From a virus (taxonomy: Duplodnaviria; Heunggongvirae; Uroviricota; Caudoviricetes), in the IMG/VR virus record IMGVR_UViG_2534682139_000012: a stretch of 28,428 nucleotides of DNA. One strand, written 5' to 3'. Under the pieces are notes generated by a model, which did not search any database, had not been told where the DNA came from, and saw only the letters and a program-made list of their open reading frames with translations. This document shows positions 6,920 through 28,428 of this stretch, in pieces (within the stretch, counting starts at the first letter, position 1; each line of letters starts with the position of its first letter). Position numbers and translations under genes: made by a program.

Positions 6920-9756
6920 GTGAGTTTGCATGGAGCTGGAATGAACCACGGCCAGCCATTGATCCGGCCAGATTTACGGAGCACAGGCAGGAAACTGAAA
7001 CCGACCTGCAACGCGCCATCCGTTACTACCTTGAGGCGGACAAAAAGGCCCGGGAAGAACAGGAAGCGAAGGAGGAAGCCTTTTTCGCACAATCCGCCAT
7101 GGGTAAAAAACTCATGGCATCCCTTGAGGAAGCCGGACAGCGTGAAAAGCTGGCACAGAGCATCATCAGTAAGCGCCGGGCAACAGAACAAGACCCGGTG
7201 GCCCGTGCCTTTGCCACACTGAAGGCGCTTCCCGTTTATCTGCGAGAACCTCTGAGCCGCCACCTCTCTTTCCTGCGCAAGAAGCAGGAAGCCGATCGTC
7301 AGAAAGGCAAAAAGAGCTGGCAGGCGGAACGCTATGCACGCGGAACCCTGCGCAAAATATTCGAACGTCTGGACCGCACCGACAGCCGCTGGCTGACACC
7401 GGGTTATCGCTCCCTTGCCGGACGCGAACGCCTGGACGATTTGCTTTACCTGCCGCAGCTCAACAAACACCAGATACAGACGCTGGCCACCATGACGGCG
7501 GCGATGTTCAGCAGCACCTTCGAAAAACTCTGCGATGGCTTTGGCGCGACTGATGGCGAACTGACCATGGATGTAACGCTGAAGGCGTATCAGATGCTGG
7601 CCCGCATGGCGTTACACCTGCACGCCATGCCTCCACATTATGACGCACTGACAACAGACAAAGACCGGAGGAACGAACCGGACACGGAGCTGCTGCCGGG
7701 CGCAATCCTTCGCCTGACCTGTGCGGAATGGTGGAAACGCAAACTGTGGCTGTTACGTTGCGAGTGGAGAGAAGAACAACTCCGCGCCGCCTGTCTGGTT
7801 TCCAGAAAAACATCACCCTATCTGAGCCAGGACGCGTTAAGCGAGTTTCGCGCACAGCGCGAGAAAACACGCGATTTCCTGAAAAGTTTTATGCTGGAAA
7901 ACGAAGACGGGTTCACGATTGATCTCGAAACAGTGTATTACGCGGGAGTAAGTAACCCGGTTCACCGTAAGGCAGAAATGATGGCCACCATGAAGGGGCT
8001 GGAACTTCTGGCCGAAGCCCGTGGCGACAAAGCGGTGTTTCTGACTGTCACCTGCCCGTCAAAATACCACGCCACAACAGAGAACGGTCATCCGAATCCC
8101 AAATGGAACGGAGCCACCATGCGCGACTCCAGCGATTACCTGGTTAACACGTTTTTTGCGGCGGTCCGCAAGAAACTGAACCGCGACGGCCTGCGCTGGT
8201 ATGGCATCCGCACGGTGGAGCCTCACCATGACGGCACCGTGCACTGGCATATGATGGTCTTTGCTCATCCGGAAGAAATCGACACCATTGTGTCCCACAC
8301 CCGCGATATTGCCATTCAGGAAGATCGTCACGAGCTGGGTGATGATATTACCCCACGCTTTAAGGCGGAGTACGTCGACGGCTCAAAAGGTACGCCAACC
8401 AGCTACATCGCCACCTACATCGGAAAGAACCTAGACAGCCGCGCCGTGGATGGCATCGACCCGAAAACGGGCAAGCCACGCGTTGACCACGAAACCGGAA
8501 AATCAATGGCCGAGAGCGTGGAACGCGCCATCGGCTGGGCGCGCCTTCACCGTGTCCGCCAGTTCCAGTTCTTTGGTATCCCCTCCCGTCAGGTGTGGCG
8601 TGAACTCCGCCGCCTTGCCAGCCAGATGGCACGCAACCCGGAAGGCCCGCAACGGCTGAAGGATGACGCAATGGATGCGGTACTCGCTGCCGCTGATGCC
8701 GGATGTTTTGCCACCTACATAGAGAAACAGGGCGGCGTACTTGTTCCACGCAAAGACTACCTGATTCGCACCGCCTACGACCTCGCAGATGAGCTGAACG
8801 ATTACGGCGAACAGAGTGTACAGATTTACGGGATCTGGTCGCCGCTCATCGGGGAATCCTCCCGTGTGTGCACGCATCCGGATAACTGGAAGCTGGTAAG
8901 ACGTAAACCGGAAGCGGAAGACAGCGCCCGCGAAAATGGTTTTGACCTTCAGGGCGGCCCTGCCGCCCCTTGGACTCGTGGCAATAACTGTCCCCGTGTA
9001 CAGGAAACGGACAACAACGGGACAGAACAGCCGGAAGAACGGCCAGCACCGTGGCCGCAGCTTCCTGACGGCGTTGATGTGGATGAATGGGTGCGCTCAC
9101 TGAAACGGCACGAACGCCGGGCGCTGATGCGTTCGCTTCGTGACAAACAGGCAAAAAACAGCAGTGATGAAATGCAGAGCTGGACACAGAGCCGCAAACA
9201 GCAGCGGCCTTTGCCTGATAACCACGAATTACTCGCTAGAGAATGGCGGGAGTCTGCTGAATCTCTCGGCCTGCATATCGGTGAACAACAAATGCAGCAC
9301 CTGTTACGGGGCGGCAGTCTGTACGTTGACGGCAGCATCATTGCACCGCAGGGATTTGAAATTGTACGCAAACCGGATACCCGCCCGGACAGCCGAATCA
9401 CGCAGCTCTGGCAGCGCCTGAGCCGTAATCACGGTGTAAGCAGCACGGAGATCCGCCATAACCCGGTCGCCAGCTATCTGGCACAGCTGGGGGCATCAGA
9501 CCCTGAAGCCGCCACACGCCTGGCATCCACACTTCAGCAGGACCAGAACACCATGAAAACACCCGTTACCGTGCTTTCTGACATGCTGCGCGCCATCCGC
9601 GACGCAGAGCACGCACAGAGAATCAGTGAAACCACTGAACGTGCCCGCCGCAAAGCAGACCTGCTGCGGGGTGGCCTGACCAGTGGAAACAAAAAACAGA
9701 CAGAAACGGGATTCACAAATCCCGTAAATGAGCAAAAAACGCGCCGCGATATATGA
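6916..9756 (+). CDS. A: P2 gpA-like rolling-circle replication initiator (HUH endonuclease), with a long C-terminal extension
   Basis: HUH-like motif VHWHMMVFAHPEE and paired tyrosines in SYIATYIGKN; the 946 aa compare with about 760 aa recalled for P2 A; start chosen at the ATG coupled to the upstream stop. Confidence 0.85.
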   Translation: MSEFAWSWNEPRPAIDPARFTEHRQETETDLQRAIRYYLEADKKAREEQEAKEEAFFAQSAMGKKLMASLEEAGQREKLAQSIISKRRATEQDPVARAFATLKALPVYLREPLSRHLSFLRKKQEADRQKGKKSWQAERYARGTLRKIFERLDRTDSRWLTPGYRSLAGRERLDDLLYLPQLNKHQIQTLATMTAAMFSSTFEKLCDGFGATDGELTMDVTLKAYQMLARMALHLHAMPPHYDALTTDKDRRNEPDTELLPGAILRLTCAEWWKRKLWLLRCEWREEQLRAACLVSRKTSPYLSQDALSEFRAQREKTRDFLKSFMLENEDGFTIDLETVYYAGVSNPVHRKAEMMATMKGLELLAEARGDKAVFLTVTCPSKYHATTENGHPNPKWNGATMRDSSDYLVNTFFAAVRKKLNRDGLRWYGIRTVEPHHDGTVHWHMMVFAHPEEIDTIVSHTRDIAIQEDRHELGDDITPRFKAEYVDGSKGTPTSYIATYIGKNLDSRAVDGIDPKTGKPRVDHETGKSMAESVERAIGWARLHRVRQFQFFGIPSRQVWRELRRLASQMARNPEGPQRLKDDAMDAVLAAADAGCFATYIEKQGGVLVPRKDYLIRTAYDLADELNDYGEQSVQIYGIWSPLIGESSRVCTHPDNWKLVRRKPEAEDSARENGFDLQGGPAAPWTRGNNCPRVQETDNNGTEQPEERPAPWPQLPDGVDVDEWVRSLKRHERRALMRSLRDKQAKNSSDEMQSWTQSRKQQRPLPDNHELLAREWRESAESLGLHIGEQQMQHLLRGGSLYVDGSIIAPQGFEIVRKPDTRPDSRITQLWQRLSRNHGVSSTEIRHNPVASYLAQLGASDPEAATRLASTLQQDQNTMKTPVTVLSDMLRAIRDAEHAQRISETTERARRKADLLRGGLTSGNKKQTETGFTNPVNEQKTRRDI

Positions 9757-19214: not shown

Positions 19215-19538
19215 GTGAGCACCATTCAAACAGGGATCACAGAGCAGGTTATTGCGTGGCTCTTTGACCACCTGCCAACGGTGTATGCAGTAGGCGCGGC
19301 GGTCAGCATTTCCGCGCTGATGAGTCTTTATGACGGACGAACACTGGTTCAGACCGTAACGGGATCGCTGGCGTGCGGCGTTCTTGCCATGGCCGTGGCC
19401 GGGTCGCTGCGCTTCTTCGGGATCCCTGAGGATGCAGTGACGTTTTTTGGTGCCTCAATCGGTTTTATGGGCGCAGAGAAAGCACGCGACAAGGTTATTG
19501 CAATATTTGATCGCAGGGTGAAGGAGAGGAACGAATGA
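19215..19538 (+). CDS. Putative holin (gpY position)
   Basis: About 107 aa with two or three hydrophobic helices and a charged C-terminus; GTG start after GGGGGAG; immediately upstream of the endolysin. Confidence 0.6.
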   Translation: MSTIQTGITEQVIAWLFDHLPTVYAVGAAVSISALMSLYDGRTLVQTVTGSLACGVLAMAVAGSLRFFGIPEDAVTFFGASIGFMGAEKARDKVIAIFDRRVKERNE

Positions 19539-19927
19539 GCAACACATTTAAATTCAGCAGCCGGAGCGAAAAGAATTTGCAGGGTGTAAATCCTGATCTG
19601 GTGAAAGTGACCCGACGGGCGCTGGAAATCTCGGAAGTGGATTTTGGTATCACCGAAGGATTGCGCAGTCGTTATCGTCAGAAGCAGCTCGTGACCACAG
19701 GCAAGAGCCAGACCATGAACAGTCGCCATCTCACAGGGCATGCCGTGGATGTTGTGGCTTATGTCGGCAACCAGGTGTCATGGGAATGGCCGCTGTACGA
19801 AAAAATCGCAGCAGCATTCAGACAGGCCAGCCAGGAACTGAATATTCCGGTGGAATGGGGCGGCGACTGGAAGACCCTGAAAGACGGACCGCATTTTCAG
19901 TTACCACACGGAGCCTATCCGGCATGA
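19535..19927 (+). CDS. Endolysin, peptidase M15 family (L-alanyl-D-glutamate peptidase, T5-endolysin-like)
   Basis: MSNTFKFSSRSEKNL ... VTRRALEIS ... DFGITEGLRS ... HLTGHAVDV ... WGGDW ... GPHFQL resembles T5 endolysin including its zinc-ligand His/Asp positions. Confidence 0.85.
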   Translation: MSNTFKFSSRSEKNLQGVNPDLVKVTRRALEISEVDFGITEGLRSRYRQKQLVTTGKSQTMNSRHLTGHAVDVVAYVGNQVSWEWPLYEKIAAAFRQASQELNIPVEWGGDWKTLKDGPHFQLPHGAYPA

Positions 19928-20319
19928 AGCTCTGGCCCACGCTTGGCGTCGCTTTCCTTCTGATTACATCCATGCGTCTGTCGTGGTCGCTGGGCCGGGA
20001 GAACGCCAGAAACGAAGCGCAGGCCAGCACCCTGAAAAGTACCGTCGACACACTGAATATCATCAGCGCCGGGGTACAGGATATGCAGCAGGTGCTGGCT
20101 CAGCTCCGCGCGGAAAATCAGCAACGCAATCAGGACGGAGAGGTAAGACGTGAACAGCTACGCAACGATATTGCAAAAGATGAATGCGCCCACGCTTTGC
20201 CTGACGCTCGTTTTACTGACAGGTTGCGCAGGCACGCAGAACGCGCCAGGGCCAGCGCCGTCAGTCCGGCTTATACCGCAGACGCTGACCATGCCGGTAA
20301 CGCCTCCCCCCTTCCCTGA
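19924..20319 (+). CDS. Rz-like inner-membrane spanin (LysB position)
   Basis: N-terminal TM (MKLWPTLGVAFLLITSM) followed by a coiled-coil-like region; ATGA overlap with the endolysin. Confidence 0.6.
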   Translation: MKLWPTLGVAFLLITSMRLSWSLGRENARNEAQASTLKSTVDTLNIISAGVQDMQQVLAQLRAENQQRNQDGEVRREQLRNDIAKDECAHALPDARFTDRLRRHAERARASAVSPAYTADADHAGNASPLP

Positions 20320-20461
20320 CCCACCCACATGGGGAAACCTCGGAATATGGGGCGACCGCCTTCTGGATGCACTGGAAACCTGTAACGCGGATAAACGGGC
20401 CATTGCTGAACTGGATAAGAGAATAGCCGAACTGACACACCAGACGGGAGTAACACAATGA
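20180..20461 (+). CDS. Rz1-like outer-membrane lipoprotein spanin (LysC position), overlapping the Rz-like gene in the +1 frame
   Basis: Lipobox LVLLTGC and a Pro-rich body (PVTPPPFPDPP); start could instead be 20150. Confidence 0.55.
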   Translation: MNAPTLCLTLVLLTGCAGTQNAPGPAPSVRLIPQTLTMPVTPPPFPDPPTWGNLGIWGDRLLDALETCNADKRAIAELDKRIAELTHQTGVTQ

Positions 20462-22335
20462 CCAGTAAGAACTTTGCACTGATTACAGCCATGACACAGG
20501 CTGAACTGACTCAAAAGGTGAATGAACATCTTGCGAAAGGGTGGCATCTTCAGGGGGAGACGCGGGTTGCCTACGAACCCGGCACCCCGTGGTATCTAAT
20601 GCAGGCAATGGTGGCCGATGGCACTACAGACATCTCACCTGATTCCCCCCAGCACGGCAGCGTGCCGGAGTGGTATTACGTGGTGGTACTTGCTGGTCAA
20701 TCCAATGCCATGTCATATGGTGAGGGAATGCCGCTGCCGGATTCTTACGATGCGCCCCACCCACGCATTAAGCAACTGGCCCGTCGCAACACAGTGACTC
20801 CCGGTGGTAAAGCATGCGCATTTAACGACATCATTCCGGCAGACCACTGCCTGCATGATGTTCAGGATATGAGCGCACTGAATCACCCGAATGCAGACCT
20901 GAGCAAAGGGCAGTATGGCTGTGTCGGACAGGGCTTGCATATTGCCAAACGCCTGTTGCCTTACATTCCACAGAATGCCGGGATTTTACTGGTTCCATGC
21001 TGTCGTGGTGGTTCGGCATTCACCCAGGGCGCGGAGGGGACATTCAGCGAGTCCACAGGAGCCAGTCAGGATTCGGCTCGCTGGGGTGTGGGTAAACCTT
21101 TATATCAGGACCTGATTTTGCGCACGAAGGCCGCATTGCAGAAAAACCCAAAAAACATGCTGCTGGCCGTATGCTGGATGCAGGGCGAATTTGACATGAG
21201 CGCCGCTACGTACTCACAGCAACCTCCGCTGTTTACGGCCATGCTGAAACAGTTTCGTGCGGACATTACCGAGTTTAACACGCAGTGTCATGGAGGCAGA
21301 GCGGCAAGTGTGCCATGGATTTGTGGTGACACGACGTATTACTGGAAAAACACCTACGGCACGCAGTACGACACCATTTACGGGGCGTACAAAAACAGGG
21401 AGAGCGACAACGTTTTCTTTGTGCCGTTCCTGACCGATGGTAGTGGCAACAATACCTCCACCAACGCACCAACGGAAGATCCGGATGCTGCAAGTGAGGG
21501 ATATTACGGTTCGGCATCCCGAACGAACAAAAACTGGGTATCATCAAATCGCCAGACGCATTTCAGCTCATGGGCGCGTCGTGGCATTATTCCCGATCGT
21601 ATGGCAACCGCTATTCTGAACGTAGCCGGTCGCACCTTAGCCTTCATCAGTGGTAAGGCACCGGAAATCAAACCCTCGCCCGGCGGCGACACGCCATCGG
21701 GGCCGTCTGAAGATGCATCCGTACGCACAATCTCCCTGTTGCCGACAGCCGGAGATGCTGCTGCGCAGGGCTGGAGCATTAAGAATGGCGGAATTCAGTT
21801 GTCAGAGGGTGTATTTAAGATCACCAAGCAGAGCAATAAAGCCTGGTCCCTGACGCGCCCGGTGGATGACGCAGTCTCCCTGCTGACACGGGGTGGCAGA
21901 CTGAGCTGTAAGTTTCGACTGTCAGGCGCACTGACCAACAATCAGTTCGGTCTGGGAATTTATCTGTATACCGATGTAGCGTTACCTGACGTCGTGGCGA
22001 TGACCGGGACTGGTAACCCGTTCCTGATGTCGTTCTTCACCCAGACCACAGACGGCAAACTGAATCTGATGCATCACAAGAAAGCAGGAAACACAAAGTT
22101 GGGCGAGTTCGGGAATTACAGTAACGACTGGCAGACGCTGGAGCTGGTGTTCACCGCCGGCAGTGCCACGGTTACTCCGAAACTGAATGGAGTGGCTGGC
22201 CCGGCATTCCAGGTCATAAAAGACAGTCTGACACTGGGGCTGAATGCGCTGACGTTAACTGATATCACTAAAAATGCCGCGTACGGCGTCGATATCGGCA
22301 GCCTGGTGCTGGAAATCAATAATCCCGCAGCATAA
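20458..22335 (+). CDS. NanS-like sialate O-acetylesterase family protein (SGNH/SASA domain with an N-terminal DUF1737-like domain); moron between the lysis cassette and tail genes
   Basis: N-terminus MTSKNFALITAMTQAELTQKVNEHLAKGWHLQGE; SASA-type active-site block VVVLAGQSNAMSYGEG; 625 aa; this slot is absent from canonical P2 between lysC and R. Confidence 0.65.
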   Translation: MTSKNFALITAMTQAELTQKVNEHLAKGWHLQGETRVAYEPGTPWYLMQAMVADGTTDISPDSPQHGSVPEWYYVVVLAGQSNAMSYGEGMPLPDSYDAPHPRIKQLARRNTVTPGGKACAFNDIIPADHCLHDVQDMSALNHPNADLSKGQYGCVGQGLHIAKRLLPYIPQNAGILLVPCCRGGSAFTQGAEGTFSESTGASQDSARWGVGKPLYQDLILRTKAALQKNPKNMLLAVCWMQGEFDMSAATYSQQPPLFTAMLKQFRADITEFNTQCHGGRAASVPWICGDTTYYWKNTYGTQYDTIYGAYKNRESDNVFFVPFLTDGSGNNTSTNAPTEDPDAASEGYYGSASRTNKNWVSSNRQTHFSSWARRGIIPDRMATAILNVAGRTLAFISGKAPEIKPSPGGDTPSGPSEDASVRTISLLPTAGDAAAQGWSIKNGGIQLSEGVFKITKQSNKAWSLTRPVDDAVSLLTRGGRLSCKFRLSGALTNNQFGLGIYLYTDVALPDVVAMTGTGNPFLMSFFTQTTDGKLNLMHHKKAGNTKLGEFGNYSNDWQTLELVFTAGSATVTPKLNGVAGPAFQVIKDSLTLGLNALTLTDITKNAAYGVDIGSLVLEINNPAA

Positions 22336-22358
22336 GGAAGAGCAGGAGAGCAAAACAG

Positions 22359-22826
22359 ATGCTTAAGACAAACAGTCTGCGAGAGTCCATGCTTCATGGG
22401 TGTCGGTGGTGCCAGGCTAATCCCGAGAAATTCACCATTTTCGTGGAGAGCGGCAACATTGAAACGACCGGAGAAGCGCCCTCGTTTGTTTACCGCTATC
22501 AGATGGTGATGTTTGTCATGGATTACGCCGGAGAGCTGGACGACCTCACGCTGCCGCTGCTGGCGTGGTTATCCGAAAATCAGCCACAGTTGTTGCTCAA
22601 TCCGGAGCGTAATCAGGACATCAAATTTTCTGCCGTTATCAATGACGATGACAGCGCCGATCTCCTGTTTACGCTCCCCCTGCGGGAACGCGTTCGCATC
22701 ACGCGCAACAGTCAGGGCACACCGCAGGCAGAACACCTGCCGGAGCCAAAACCCCGTCTGCCTTCTTCCGAAGGCGACTGGTCGCATGTATTCCAGGATG
22801 TGACGTGGGGTGAAAGCGATGGATAA
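22359..22826 (+). CDS. R: P2 gpR-like tail completion protein
   Basis: 155 aa, the same length as recalled for P2 R; synteny. Confidence 0.8.
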   Translation: MLKTNSLRESMLHGCRWCQANPEKFTIFVESGNIETTGEAPSFVYRYQMVMFVMDYAGELDDLTLPLLAWLSENQPQLLLNPERNQDIKFSAVINDDDSADLLFTLPLRERVRITRNSQGTPQAEHLPEPKPRLPSSEGDWSHVFQDVTWGESDG

Positions 22827-23454
22827 GGCATTCACCCGCGTGGATGAAACCTTTGAGGCTATCCGCGACAGCCTGAATCAGCAGGCCATCAATAACATCG
22901 CCAGAAAGCTGGCACAGGATTTACGTCGCGCCCAGCAGGCACGTATCCGGTCACAAAAAGCGCCGGACGGGACCGAATGGACACCACGCAGACGCCGCGT
23001 AACCCGGATACAGGAGCGCATTCGCTTTATCTGGAATAACGAAGCACGCACGCTGAAAAACTGGCATCACGACACAGGGAAATACGGGCGAACCATTACC
23101 GGGTGGGATGAGGATAAAAACAATATCCGCACGTTTTACCGGGATGACATCGACCGTTTTCTGGAAATACGCACCCGGCGCATCAACCAGGACAGCACAA
23201 AGCGCGTCCCCATGTTCGTAAAACTGCGCACCGCCCGCTACCTGAAAGCCCGTGCAGATGCTTCCGGTGTGACGGTGGGTTACAGCGGCGTGGCCGCACG
23301 TATTGCCCGCGTTCATCAGTTCGGTGAGCGCGATCAGGTTGCGCCGGGCATTTTCACCGATTACCCGGTACGTGAGCTGCTGGGTATCAGCCAGGCAGAT
23401 GAACGCCTGATTTATAACACGGTGCTGGGCCGGATTGCGGAGGCTGTACGGTGA
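22819..23454 (+). CDS. S: P2 gpS-like tail completion / virion morphogenesis protein
   Basis: MDKAFTRVDETFEAIRDSLNQ start; overlaps the R stop; longer than recalled for P2 S (about 150 aa). Confidence 0.7.
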   Translation: MDKAFTRVDETFEAIRDSLNQQAINNIARKLAQDLRRAQQARIRSQKAPDGTEWTPRRRRVTRIQERIRFIWNNEARTLKNWHHDTGKYGRTITGWDEDKNNIRTFYRDDIDRFLEIRTRRINQDSTKRVPMFVKLRTARYLKARADASGVTVGYSGVAARIARVHQFGERDQVAPGIFTDYPVRELLGISQADERLIYNTVLGRIAEAVR

Positions 23455-24032
23455 GCGCAGAACTCATGCGACTGCTGAGCAACATCATCCGCACCGGGAT
23501 TATCTCTGAAGTTGATGAGAAGTCCTGGTGCGTGCGCGTTCGCAGCGGCGAACTGGAAACAGGCTGGTTGCGCTGGAACACCACGCGCGCGGGAGCCTTC
23601 AATGTGTGGCTGCCGCCATCACCCGGCGAACAGGTGGTAATTGCCTGCATTGGCGGCAACCCGGAAACCGCCATGATAATTGGCAGCCTGTGGAGTGATG
23701 CCAGTCCGGCACCCGGCAAAAGCCTGAAAGAAATCGTGGTCAGCGCGCCGGACGGCGCGGTGTTCCGCTACGACGCGGACGCAGGCGCACTGAGTGCCAG
23801 CGGCATGAAAACGGCCACTTTGCAGGCATCCGTCAGCGTGAAACTGGATACGCCCGTCGTGGAATGCACAAACCTTCTGAAAACAGCCGAGATTGACGTC
23901 ACAAAAGGGGGAAAGATGAGCGGCAATATCACGCACAGTGGCGGCGATTTCACCTCAAACGGCATCACAGTGCATACGCATAAGCACGGTGGCGTTAAAG
24001 GTGGCAGCGATTCGACAGGAGGCCCGCAGTGA
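23451..24032 (+). CDS. V: P2 gpV-like baseplate spike/assembly protein
   Basis: IRTGII ... GEQVVIACIGG ... VECTN ... KGGKMSGNITHSGG ... SNGITVHTHKHGG resemble P2 V; GTG start overlapping the S stop. Confidence 0.85.
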   Translation: MSAELMRLLSNIIRTGIISEVDEKSWCVRVRSGELETGWLRWNTTRAGAFNVWLPPSPGEQVVIACIGGNPETAMIIGSLWSDASPAPGKSLKEIVVSAPDGAVFRYDADAGALSASGMKTATLQASVSVKLDTPVVECTNLLKTAEIDVTKGGKMSGNITHSGGDFTSNGITVHTHKHGGVKGGSDSTGGPQ

Positions 24033-25804: not shown

Positions 25805-28075
25805 ATGAGTACCACAACACGAAAATTTAAAACCATTATCACTGATACTGGTGCCAAAAAATTAGCTCAGGCAGCCGCGCCAGATGGTAATCCTGTCCAC
25901 CTGACTCACATGGCCGTGGGCGACGGTGGCGGCACGTTGCCCACACCAGACAGTAAGCAGACCCGTCTGGTGCATGAGGTGTGGCGACATACTGTTAATC
26001 GCGTCATCCTGGACGCAACACATCAGAACCGCATTATTGCGGAGCTGGTTATTCCTCCTGAAACGGGCGGATTCTGGATCCGGGAAATTGGTGTATTTGA
26101 TGAGCACGGCGATTTGATCGCGGTGGGCAATACTGCCGAAAGTTACAAGCCAGCCGTTGCCGAAGGATCCGGACGTGCACAAACATTTCGCACCATTCTG
26201 ACCGTATCCAGCACTGCCACCGTGGCGCTTACCGTGGATAACACCATGGTTATGGCCACAGTGGATTACGTGAATGACAAACTGAAAGAACATGAACAGT
26301 CACGACGTCACCCGGACGCCTCGCTGACCGCAAAAGGCTTTGTTCAACTCAGTAGCGCCACCAACAGCACGTCTGAAGCACTGGCCGCAACGCCGAAAGC
26401 GGTCAAGGCAGCCTATGACCTTGCTAACGGGAAATATACCGCACAGGACGCCACTACAGCGCGAAAAGGCATTGTCCAGCTCAGTAGCGCCACCAACAGC
26501 GATTCAGAAACGCTGGCGGCAACACCAAAGGCGGTAAAGGCAGCCTATGACCTGGCTAACGGGAAATACACCGCACAGGATGCAACAACAGCACAGAAAG
26601 GGATAATCCAGCTAAGCAGCGCGACCAACAGCACATCTGAAACGCTTGCCGCGACACCAAAGGCAGTAAAAACAGCCTATGACAATGCTGAGAAACGTCT
26701 GCAGAAAGATCAGAACGGTGCGGATATCCCTGGCAAAGACACCTTTACGAAAAATATTGGTGCCTGCCGTGCCTTCGGTGGGTCAGTAAGCACAACAACA
26801 GGAAACTGGACGACTGCACAGTTTATCGAGTGGCTGGATTCTCAGGGAGCATTTAACCATCCATACTGGATGTGCAAGGGTTCCTGGTCTTATGGCAATA
26901 ATAAAATCATTACTGATACTGACTGCGGTAATATTCATCTCGCCGGAGCTGTCATTGAAGTAATGGGGATAAAGTCAGCGATGACGATCCGCATTACCAC
27001 ACCGACCACCTCCACTGGTGGTGGAACAACTAACGCCCAGTTTACCTATATTAATCACGGAACAGATTATTCACCTGGCTGGCGAAGGGACTATAACTCC
27101 AGAAATAAGCCAACGGCATCAGAGATCGGGGCGTTACCGTCAGGTGGAACAGCAGTATCATCAGTTAATCTGGCTTCAAAAGGTCAGGTAACCGCGCTGA
27201 CAGACAATACGCAGGGGGCAACAGGTCTTGAGTTATACGAGGTGTATAACAACGGATATCCAACAGCGTATGGAAATATCATTCACCTGAAAGGGATGAC
27301 AGCCGTTGGCGAAGGTGAGTTACTCATCGGCTGGAGTGGTACAAGCGGTGCTCATGCTCCGGCATTTATTCGTTCACGACGGGATACGACCGACGCAAAC
27401 TGGTCGCCGTGGGCGCAGCTTTACACCTCGGCTCATCCTCCTGCAGAGTTTTATCCAGTCGGTGCACCAATCCCGTGGCCATCAGATACCGTTCCGTCTG
27501 GTTATGCCCTGATGCAGGGGCAGACTTTTGACAAATCTGCCTACCCGAAACTTGCAGCCGCTTATCCGTCAGGCGTGATCCCTGATATGCGTGGCTGGAC
27601 GATTAAGGGCAAGCCCGCCAGTGGTCGTGCCGTATTGTCTCAGGAACAGGACGGCATTAAATCGCACACCCACAGCGCCAGCGTATCCAGTACGGATTTG
27701 GGTACGAAAACCACATCGTCGTTTGATTACGGGACGAAAACAACCTCACTATTTGACTATGGGACCAAAACTACCAGTAACGCCGGGAGTCACACGCATT
27801 CAATACCAACATCAGATGGTGCAAACCAGTGGGGGAAAATTCCACTGACATCTGGGCGTCTGGCAACTCAATATACATCAGCAACAACAGGTTCCTCTGG
27901 CTCACATTCTCATACTGTAGGTATTGGTTCTCATCAGCACACTGTCGGTATTGGTGCACACACGCACTCCGTTGCGATTGGCTCACATGGACACACCATC
28001 ACCGTAAACGCTGCTGGTAACGCGGAAAACACCGTCAAAAACATCGCATTTAACTATATTGTGAGGCTTGCATAA
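25805..28075 (+). CDS. H: P2 gpH-like tail fibre protein with internal repeats and a His-rich distal domain
   Basis: 756 aa; conserved N-terminal domain; three 44-aa repeats ([12 protein letters not shown] ... [12 protein letters not shown]); C-terminal HxH repeats and the ending [11 protein letters not shown]. Confidence 0.85.
26336..26700 (+). repeat. About 2.8 tandem copies of a 132-bp (44-codon) repeat inside the tail fibre gene
   Basis: Units begin at about 26336, 26468 and 26600; the protein repeats differ mainly at synonymous or conservative positions. Confidence 0.8.
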
Positions 28076-28428
28076 TGGCATTCAGAATGAGTAAACAATC
28101 ACGAACCCTCAAAATTTATAATCTGCTGGCCGGAACTAATGAATTTATTGGTGACGGTGACGCATATATTCCACCTCATACAGGTCTACCTGCAAACAGT
28201 ACCGATATTGCACCGCCAGATATTCCGGCTGGCTTCGTGGCTGTTTTCAACACTGATGAGGCATCGTGGCATCTCGTTGAAGACCATCGGGGTTATACCG
28301 TCTATGACGTGGCTTCCGGCGACGCGTTATTTATTTCTGAACTTGGCCCATTACCGGAAAATGTCACCTGGTTATCCCCGGAAGGGGAGTTTCAGAAGTG
28401 GAACGGTACATCCTGGGTGAAAGATGCA
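28075..28428 (+). CDS. G: Tail fibre assembly protein (gpG/Tfa-like), 3'-partial at the window end
   Basis: ATG overlaps the H stop (TAATG); open frame to the window end ([34 protein letters not shown] ...); position as in P2. Confidence 0.7.

Follow-up and report, generated by a model that had tools for sequence, protein, structure and literature searches.

The complete open reading frame (ORF) at positions 25805-28075 (plus strand) of the viral record IMGVR_UViG_2534682139_000012, a stretch of 28,428 nucleotides that is referred to here as the window, very probably specifies a trimeric, modular tail fibre for a temperate myovirus of the P2-like kind, with modules that can be exchanged and a metal-bound tip of the type known from T4 gp37 and lambda Stf. 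The ORF specifies 756 amino acids (aa) and lies at the gpH position of a P2-like prophage. It is an already annotated, ordinary member of a well-studied family: its product is identical over the full length to RefSeq protein WP_000108490.1 ('phage tail protein'), exactly this protein occurs on at least 1000 contigs, and at least 19 finished genomes of E. coli, several with the label O103, O45 or O121, contain full-length copies of the gene with 100% identity. A total of 183 finished E. coli genomes contain at least 80% of the gene. The homology that unites T4 gp37, lambda Stf and temperate-phage fibres has been known since the 1980s, and the iron-binding needle was solved in 2010. The feature as such is already known, and the analysis carries little weight for discovery because the gene is annotated in thousands of assemblies.

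A sequence-only reading of the window had called the ORF a mosaic tail fibre, and both parts of this description are borne out. Pfam recognizes gpR, gpS, the spike protein gpV, gpW, gpJ and gpI from position 22359 rightward, with Baseplate_J and Tail_P2_I immediately upstream of the fibre ORF, which comes directly next. The protein matches tail-fibre families in PHROG, and Pfam finds a tail-fibre domain at its N-terminus, followed by fibre repeats and a Collar domain (Table 1). Its mosaic nature is evident from the different relatives of its segments. The DNA encoding the N-terminal domain is 92% identical to that of fibres from P2-like phages and from P88/Xuanwuvirus, and P2 gpH aligns only to residues 1-442 (71% identity), so that a P2-type distal half with a gpG-type chaperone is not what this fibre carries. 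Residues 186-756 share 82% identity with lambdoid Stf proteins of the PhiR26_1 type, and nucleotides 660-2271 of the gene are about 97% identical, outside the tip, to the Stf genes of some lambdoid phages (PhiR26_1, mEp460). Solved fibre chains of phage Mu (5yvq and 8ju3) match residues 247-450, and the end of the protein matches the T4 gp37 tip, as described below. In addition, the baseplate genes have a guanine-cytosine content of 57-60%, which drops to 45-50% towards the distal fibre and the tail fibre assembly chaperone gene (tfa) that follows; this fits a composite origin. Weak Pfam matches (Gp34_trimer at E 0.007, TPR and ARM) fell below cut-offs and were discarded.

The chaperone gene tells a similar story. 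Its ATG overlaps the stop codon of the fibre gene (TAATG, 28073-28077), and the complete 192-aa Tfa, taken from a prophage with an identical tail fibre (CP027388), is 87% identical to lambda Tfa (orf-194) and 27% identical to T4 gp38, whereas only the last 73 residues align with P2 gpG (48% identity). Given the relatives of the individual segments and this likeness of Tfa to its lambda counterpart rather than to gpG as a whole, the distal fibre and its chaperone are, by sequence comparison, a module of the lambda/T4 type that sits on a fibre base of the P2 type. Exchanges of this sort have been described before: a lambda origin has been ascribed to the C-terminus of T4 g37 and to g38 (PMC3157838), and the last ~215 aa belong to a receptor-binding-protein family common to the tail fibres of more than 200 phages (PMC9659904). 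A search with the tip recovered 264 clusters at E <= 1e-30 from a library of 1.84 billion representative proteins, and 705 records from a phage collection.

The distal region was originally noted for a resemblance of its histidine-rich motifs to the T4 long tail fibre tip, which can now be restated as clear homology. Residues 549-756 match the T4 gp37 tip (PDB 2XGF, residues 785-1026) with E 6.4e-78 and 65% identity by BLASTP, and residues 550-756 are 66% identical to orf-314 of lambda, which makes up the distal half of Stf. In T4, residues 882-931 and 960-1009 form the stem of the gp37 D11 domain and residues 932-959 its tip subdomain, and the needle holds seven irons that are coordinated by histidines along its length (PMC6957217). 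The substitutions H929A and H931A are lethal, and the surface of the tip binds lipopolysaccharide (LPS) and OmpC (PMC6957217). In the window fibre, the collar, which directly precedes the needle, is 82% identical to T4 gp37 residues 811-881, the two stem strands are 60-63% identical to those of T4 (Table 1), and the C-terminal 17 aa are near-invariant across all six relatives that were aligned.

Two kinds of short repeats populate the needle. Three YGTKTTS repeats had been reported with a period of 27 bp (9 aa); the three copies are real, but their period is 30 nt (10 aa). Lambda also has three such units, and T4 has two. Likewise, the C-terminal His-x-His (HxH) stretch was quoted exactly (aa 699-734, positions 27899-28006), but the two HxH motifs of the other strand, at residues 621-623 and 663-665, were missed. 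The HxH motifs at residues 701, 710, 719 and 728 align with T4 H966/968, H980/982, H989/991 and H998/1000, respectively. Six HxH motifs are present in the protein overall, more than expected by chance: among 10,000 shuffled versions of its sequence, the mean was 0.87 and no version exceeded 5.

T4 gp37 carries HxH motifs at residues 883, 915, 929, 966, 980, 989 and 998, and these seven motifs equal the seven irons of the needle, which implies one motif per iron. To place the motifs of both strands on a single axis, we positioned them on the hairpin by the T4 stem boundaries, with the first motif of the outward strand set to 0 and the last one of the return strand to +8. Merged in this way, the positions are 0, 8, 17, 26, 32, 40 and 46 for T4 (seven motifs), 0, 8, 17, 26, 35, 42, 49 and 56 for lambda (eight motifs), and 0, 8, 17, 26, 35 and 42 for the window fibre (six motifs, 7-9 residues apart). 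Thus, the window pattern equals the lambda pattern minus its two most distal rungs. Among 133 representatives of the family, which carry 3-10 HxH motifs (mode 7) and 0-5 GTK units (mode 2), a register offset of 7-8 places 98% of the merged spacings between 6 and 10 residues, whereas offsets below 4 or above 10 do so for only ~44%. We therefore conclude that the histidines form an evenly spaced ladder throughout the family, to which the window fibre conforms. Compared with T4, the ascending stem lacks 4 residues, and so do the head and descending stem taken together; these balanced reductions fit a head of unchanged length (28 aa) held between two equally shortened strands. From this arithmetic, we predict six metal sites that are evenly spaced along a hairpin needle.

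The mechanism that we favor for the complete fibre can be outlined as follows. The P2-family N-terminal domain would fix the fibre to the baseplate, and its length would be set by three Phage_fiber_2 units together with the shaft common to Mu S' and lambdoid Stf. The last 208 residues would then form a receptor-binding tip of the T4 gp37/lambda Stf type, composed of collar, needle and small head. Each chain is expected to run out along the needle (aa 620-665), to form the 28-residue head (aa 666-693) and to return (aa 694-739), such that a trimer would yield a six-stranded needle. At each HxH, the three chains would contribute six histidines to hold one metal ion, which is iron in T4, on the three-fold axis, and six such ions, at axial positions 0, 8, 17, 26, 35 and 42 residues, could rivet the three chains together like rungs. 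The lambda-type Tfa, whose translation is probably coupled to that of the fibre, would fold the tip, and the head, unrelated in sequence to that of T4, presumably contacts an outer-membrane receptor. In related systems, expression of the T4 needle requires gp38 and gp57A (PMC6957217), and lambda Tfa is a helper of Stf trimer assembly (PMC7291167).

Several observations weigh against this proposal. An AlphaFold2 monomer prediction for residues 540-756, made from a 5-sequence alignment, gave almost no secondary structure (mean predicted local distance difference test score 37, predicted template modelling score 0.17). Such a failure can be explained by the intertwined, metal-bound obligate trimer that is expected here, but because the model is uninformative, the case for metal binding and for the limits of the head depends on homology and arithmetic. 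Moreover, the predicted head equals the T4 tip subdomain (932-959) in length but is only 14% identical to it, and the T4 residues critical for LPS and OmpC binding, except for two histidines, are not conserved. Finally, across the isolated phages of the collection, tips reach at most 79% identity over their length. The receptor therefore is not inferable by identity, and we dropped the idea of deducing it from a characterized phage with the same tip, the closest being 79% identical.

Two further proposals are offered jointly and only tentatively: that the needle evolves as a ladder of interchangeable rungs, and that the 28-residue head recognizes a receptor other than OmpC or the LPS core. The strands may gain or lose matched segments of ~14 residues, and either strand may supply the metal site at a given height. 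For example, the +32 site of T4 comes from the outward strand, whereas the +35 site of lambda and of the window fibre comes from the return strand; at that height, the outward strand of the latter two carries the third GTKTTS unit. By this process, tips with 3 to 10 metal sites may arise while spacings are kept at 6-9 residues. No statement of such a rule was found in the literature consulted, which did not include the original paper on 2XGF. The ladder arithmetic and the uncharacterized head allele are the only, and mildly, new points of this analysis.

Table 1. Modules of the window fibre and the adjacent chaperone gene, with the evidence for each.
Feature	Position	Strand	Evidence
N-terminal baseplate-attachment domain, P2-family type, aa 6-153	25820..26263	+	Pfam PF12571 Phage_tail_fib, E 6.8e-54
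Three tandem 44-aa (132-nt) units, aa 173-216, 217-260, 261-304	26321..26716	+	Tandem Repeats Finder (TRF), Pfam PF03406 x3
Shaft domain homologous to phage Mu S/S' fibre, aa 293-450	26681..27154	+	PDB 8ju3, domain E 1.5e-68
Collar domain, aa 549-619	27449..27661	+	PF07484 at aa 553-600, 46.4 bits (cut-off 24), E 3.8e-12
Needle ascending strand, aa 620-665, HxH at 621-623 and 663-665	27662..27799	+	60% identity with T4 gp37 stem 882-931
Three 10-aa (30-nt) DxGTKTTSxF units, aa 633, 643, 653, inside ascending strand	27695..27784	+	Repeat search, spacing 30
Predicted distal tip (head) subdomain, aa 666-693, likely receptor-binding surface	27800..27883	+	Boundaries inferred from T4 stem boundaries (PMC6957217)
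Needle descending strand, aa 694-739	27884..28021	+	63% identity with T4 gp37 960-1009
Four 9-aa (27-nt) GxHxHTVGI units, HxH at aa 701, 710, 719, 728	27899..28006	+	Repeat search
Conserved C-terminal 17 aa	28022..28072	+	16/17 residues (94%) identical to T4 gp37
Tail fibre assembly chaperone gene (tfa), first 118 of 192 codons in window	28075..28428	+	Pfam PF02413 Caudo_TAP

The shaft repeats agree closely with the ~2.8 copies of a 132-bp repeat that had been read from the DNA. TRF reports 2.7 copies of period 132 at positions 26332-26683 with 82% matches and no indels, and a repeat search finds three in-register copies at 132-nt spacing, the second and third being 84% and 75% identical to the first. 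PF03406 (Phage_fiber_2) covers aa 173-304 in three stretches with 206 bits (cut-off 22; E 3.6e-62). A comparison of copy number among related prophages, which the sequence-only reading had suggested, comes out in its favor. Syntenic P2-like prophages in finished genomes carry two (JNE151685 and FORC_069), three (CP027388, as in the window) or four (CP056613) 44-aa units, and three 712-aa variants among near-identical proteins each lack exactly one unit, with two different junctions. The three-copy form is nevertheless dominant, as evident from its presence in 106 of 117 clusters of near-identical proteins of at least 700 aa, all 106 with the 3/3/6 architecture (44-aa, GTK and HxH units). The suggestion that such repeats are hotspots thus holds for variation in length. 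A role in host-range switching is not demonstrated; the part that differs in the receptor-binding region, as defined by T4, is the unique 28-residue head cassette and not the repeats, and nothing ties specificity to the repeats. Overall, the interpretation given by that reading is supported, and its observation is partly confirmed.

This last point also bears on the view that the repeats serve as a contingency device, in which frequent slippage or recombination within the 132-, 30- and 27-bp repeats switches host range at a high rate. The spread from two to four 44-aa units across syntenic prophages speaks for it, as do the 0-5 GTK repeats and 3-10 HxH motifs in tips of the family. Duplications of a small gp37 segment also reportedly can expand the host range of T4 (Tetart et al. 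1996, cited in PMC3157838). However, copies of the 132-bp repeat that are only 75-84% identical are poor substrates for frequent slippage, and the prevalence of the 3/3/6 architecture and the recurrence of the exact three-copy protein speak against the idea, as does the long distance of the shaft repeats from the receptor-binding head. Furthermore, the numbers of GTK and HxH units are not free to change, since the ascending strand has to remain in match with the descending one. We consider frequent switching of this kind very improbable. As for the notion that the histidine-rich stretch is a chance or low-complexity sequence, or a generic metal-scavenging segment without a structural role, its simple, repetitive look is the sole point in favor. 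That reading is refuted by a number of HxH motifs beyond the shuffle maximum, by residue-by-residue homology to a solved needle and by a register kept in 133 representatives, and its probability is close to nil.

A different possibility is that Tfa is kept on the finished tip and is itself the adhesin, or part of it, in place of the fibre head. According to a passage of PMC7291167 that cites Hendrix and Duda (1992), lambda Tfa is a component of mature virions, and the close identity of the window Tfa to the lambda protein makes this pertinent. Against it, direct binding to LPS and OmpC has been shown for the purified gp37 needle of T4, and point mutations of the tip eliminate it (PMC6957217). 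The hypervariable part among relatives, moreover, is the fibre head, whereas Tfa remains 87-92% identical across fibres with strongly differing tip regions (lambda, PhiR26_1 and Ro157c2). It therefore seems unlikely that Tfa replaces the head, and we retain the fibre head as the preferred candidate for receptor contact.

The window fibre combines traits of several well-known systems. Like T4 gp37, it has HxH motifs on both strands and a dedicated chaperone gene immediately downstream. The two differ in that the T4 tip is carried by the jointed gp34-35-36-37 fibre and the window tip by a P2-type N-terminus. (The T4 comparison record, OL964745.1, is a mutant clone with H for Y at gp37 residue 953, ISHRAGG as opposed to ISYRAGG in 2XGF, which leaves the HxH count unaffected; residue 953 is among those of the OmpC patch (PMC6957217).) With Stf of lambda (Ur-lambda, orf-401/orf-314), the fibre shares the rungs 0, 8, 17, 26, 35 and 42 in addition to the number of GTK repeats, but lambda Stf has two more rungs and a much larger head insertion, is joined to a different N-terminus on a siphovirus tail, and binds OmpC. 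P2 gpH agrees with the window fibre in gene position after gpJ-gpI, N-terminal domain, repeats and proximal shaft. In contrast, neither an HxH motif nor a GTK repeat occurs in the gpH of the record used, and its distal part and chaperone gpG are of another type. Among phages, the P1-like Ro157c2YLVW comes near, with a tip 79% and a Tfa 92% identical to those of the window.

Relatives also differ in the head. Syntenic relatives in finished genomes carry a different head cassette (NIPVGHTGAGNGVSAG...), which is also found in a P1-like phage, and across differing tips the collar, the KSHTHSAS box and the C-terminus are conserved. Prophages of E. coli strains with the labels O103, O45 and O121 often carry the head allele of the window fibre; among the isolated phages of the collection, the allele is absent. 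The fibre is thus of modest practical value as a natural example of a conserved scaffold (collar, HxH ladder, C-terminal 17 aa and lambda-type Tfa) around a small exchangeable head, a design that serves to re-target phage-derived particles. Because prophages of the strains named above frequently have this allele, knowledge of its receptor could be of use to anyone who engineers particles against those strains.

The matches to Mu S/S' prompted us to consider an invertible segment of the type operated by Gin, Cin or Pin in Mu, P1 and e14. Mu and P1 have invertible tail fibres (S/S' with U/U'). The Gin/Cin-type crossover core AAACCnnGGTTT has no match in the window with up to 1 mismatch, and downstream of tfa in the CP027388 prophage we find an acetyltransferase gene and tail genes, with no invertase and no second, inverted tip or chaperone. 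This reading was rejected for lack of a crossover site and of an inverted alternative tip. Nor did we accept P0111 and P0116 as proof that tips are swapped while the shaft stays identical, since their draft contigs could be assembly chimeras across shared shaft sequence; for this reason, the variation described above was taken from finished genomes. In these contigs (positions 5881-8259 and 5965-8292), whose near-identical fibres end in other tips, P2-like genes give way, just past the fibre and Tfa, either to LydB and DarA, both P1 genes, or to a Pin-type invertase accompanied by YnaE and YnaM, known from the Rac prophage. The contigs represent either real inter-prophage recombinants or assembly chimeras.

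The acetyltransferase gene noted above encodes a serine O-acetyltransferase and lies just past the right end of the window, at 8893-9465 of the CP027388 prophage, directly after tfa and on the opposite strand. Its position is that of the Z/fun cargo locus of P2. The same gene also follows the fibre in JNE151685 and FORC_069, and in CP056613 and a P1-like phage its place is taken by an unannotated gene of 190 aa. The serine O-acetyltransferase gene travels with the fibre-tfa module.

The remainder of the window is likewise that of a P2-like prophage. The ORF list shows sizes and a layout in the head and lysis part as expected for P2-type genes, and an identical copy of the stretch 19500-22900 in RefSeq encodes an M15 peptidase, a DUF2570 protein and LysC. 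A P2-type replication gene A is present towards the left end (6889-9756, plus strand). Its product is 955 aa long and the Phage_GPA domain covers only residues 194-518; as P2 gpA is ~760 aa long, the window protein is apparently extended at the N- or C-terminus. An ORF of 625 aa (20458-22335, plus strand), located between the lysis genes and gpR, combines DUF1737, a SASA sialate O-acetylesterase domain and DUF6645, and resembles the NanS-p esterases of Stx prophages. No gene occupies this position in the CP027388 prophage, and at least 80% of the region 19500-22900 is present in 373 finished E. coli genomes. This ORF looks like a cargo gene (moron) at an unusual position for P2. Finally, the spike protein gpV (23451-24032, plus strand), which has Pfam matches to Phage_spike and 'GpV Apex', ends in ...ITVHTHKHGGVKGG, which adds a second motif of the HxH type to the same virion; for P2, work cited within a passage of PMC7291167 describes an iron-loaded spike.

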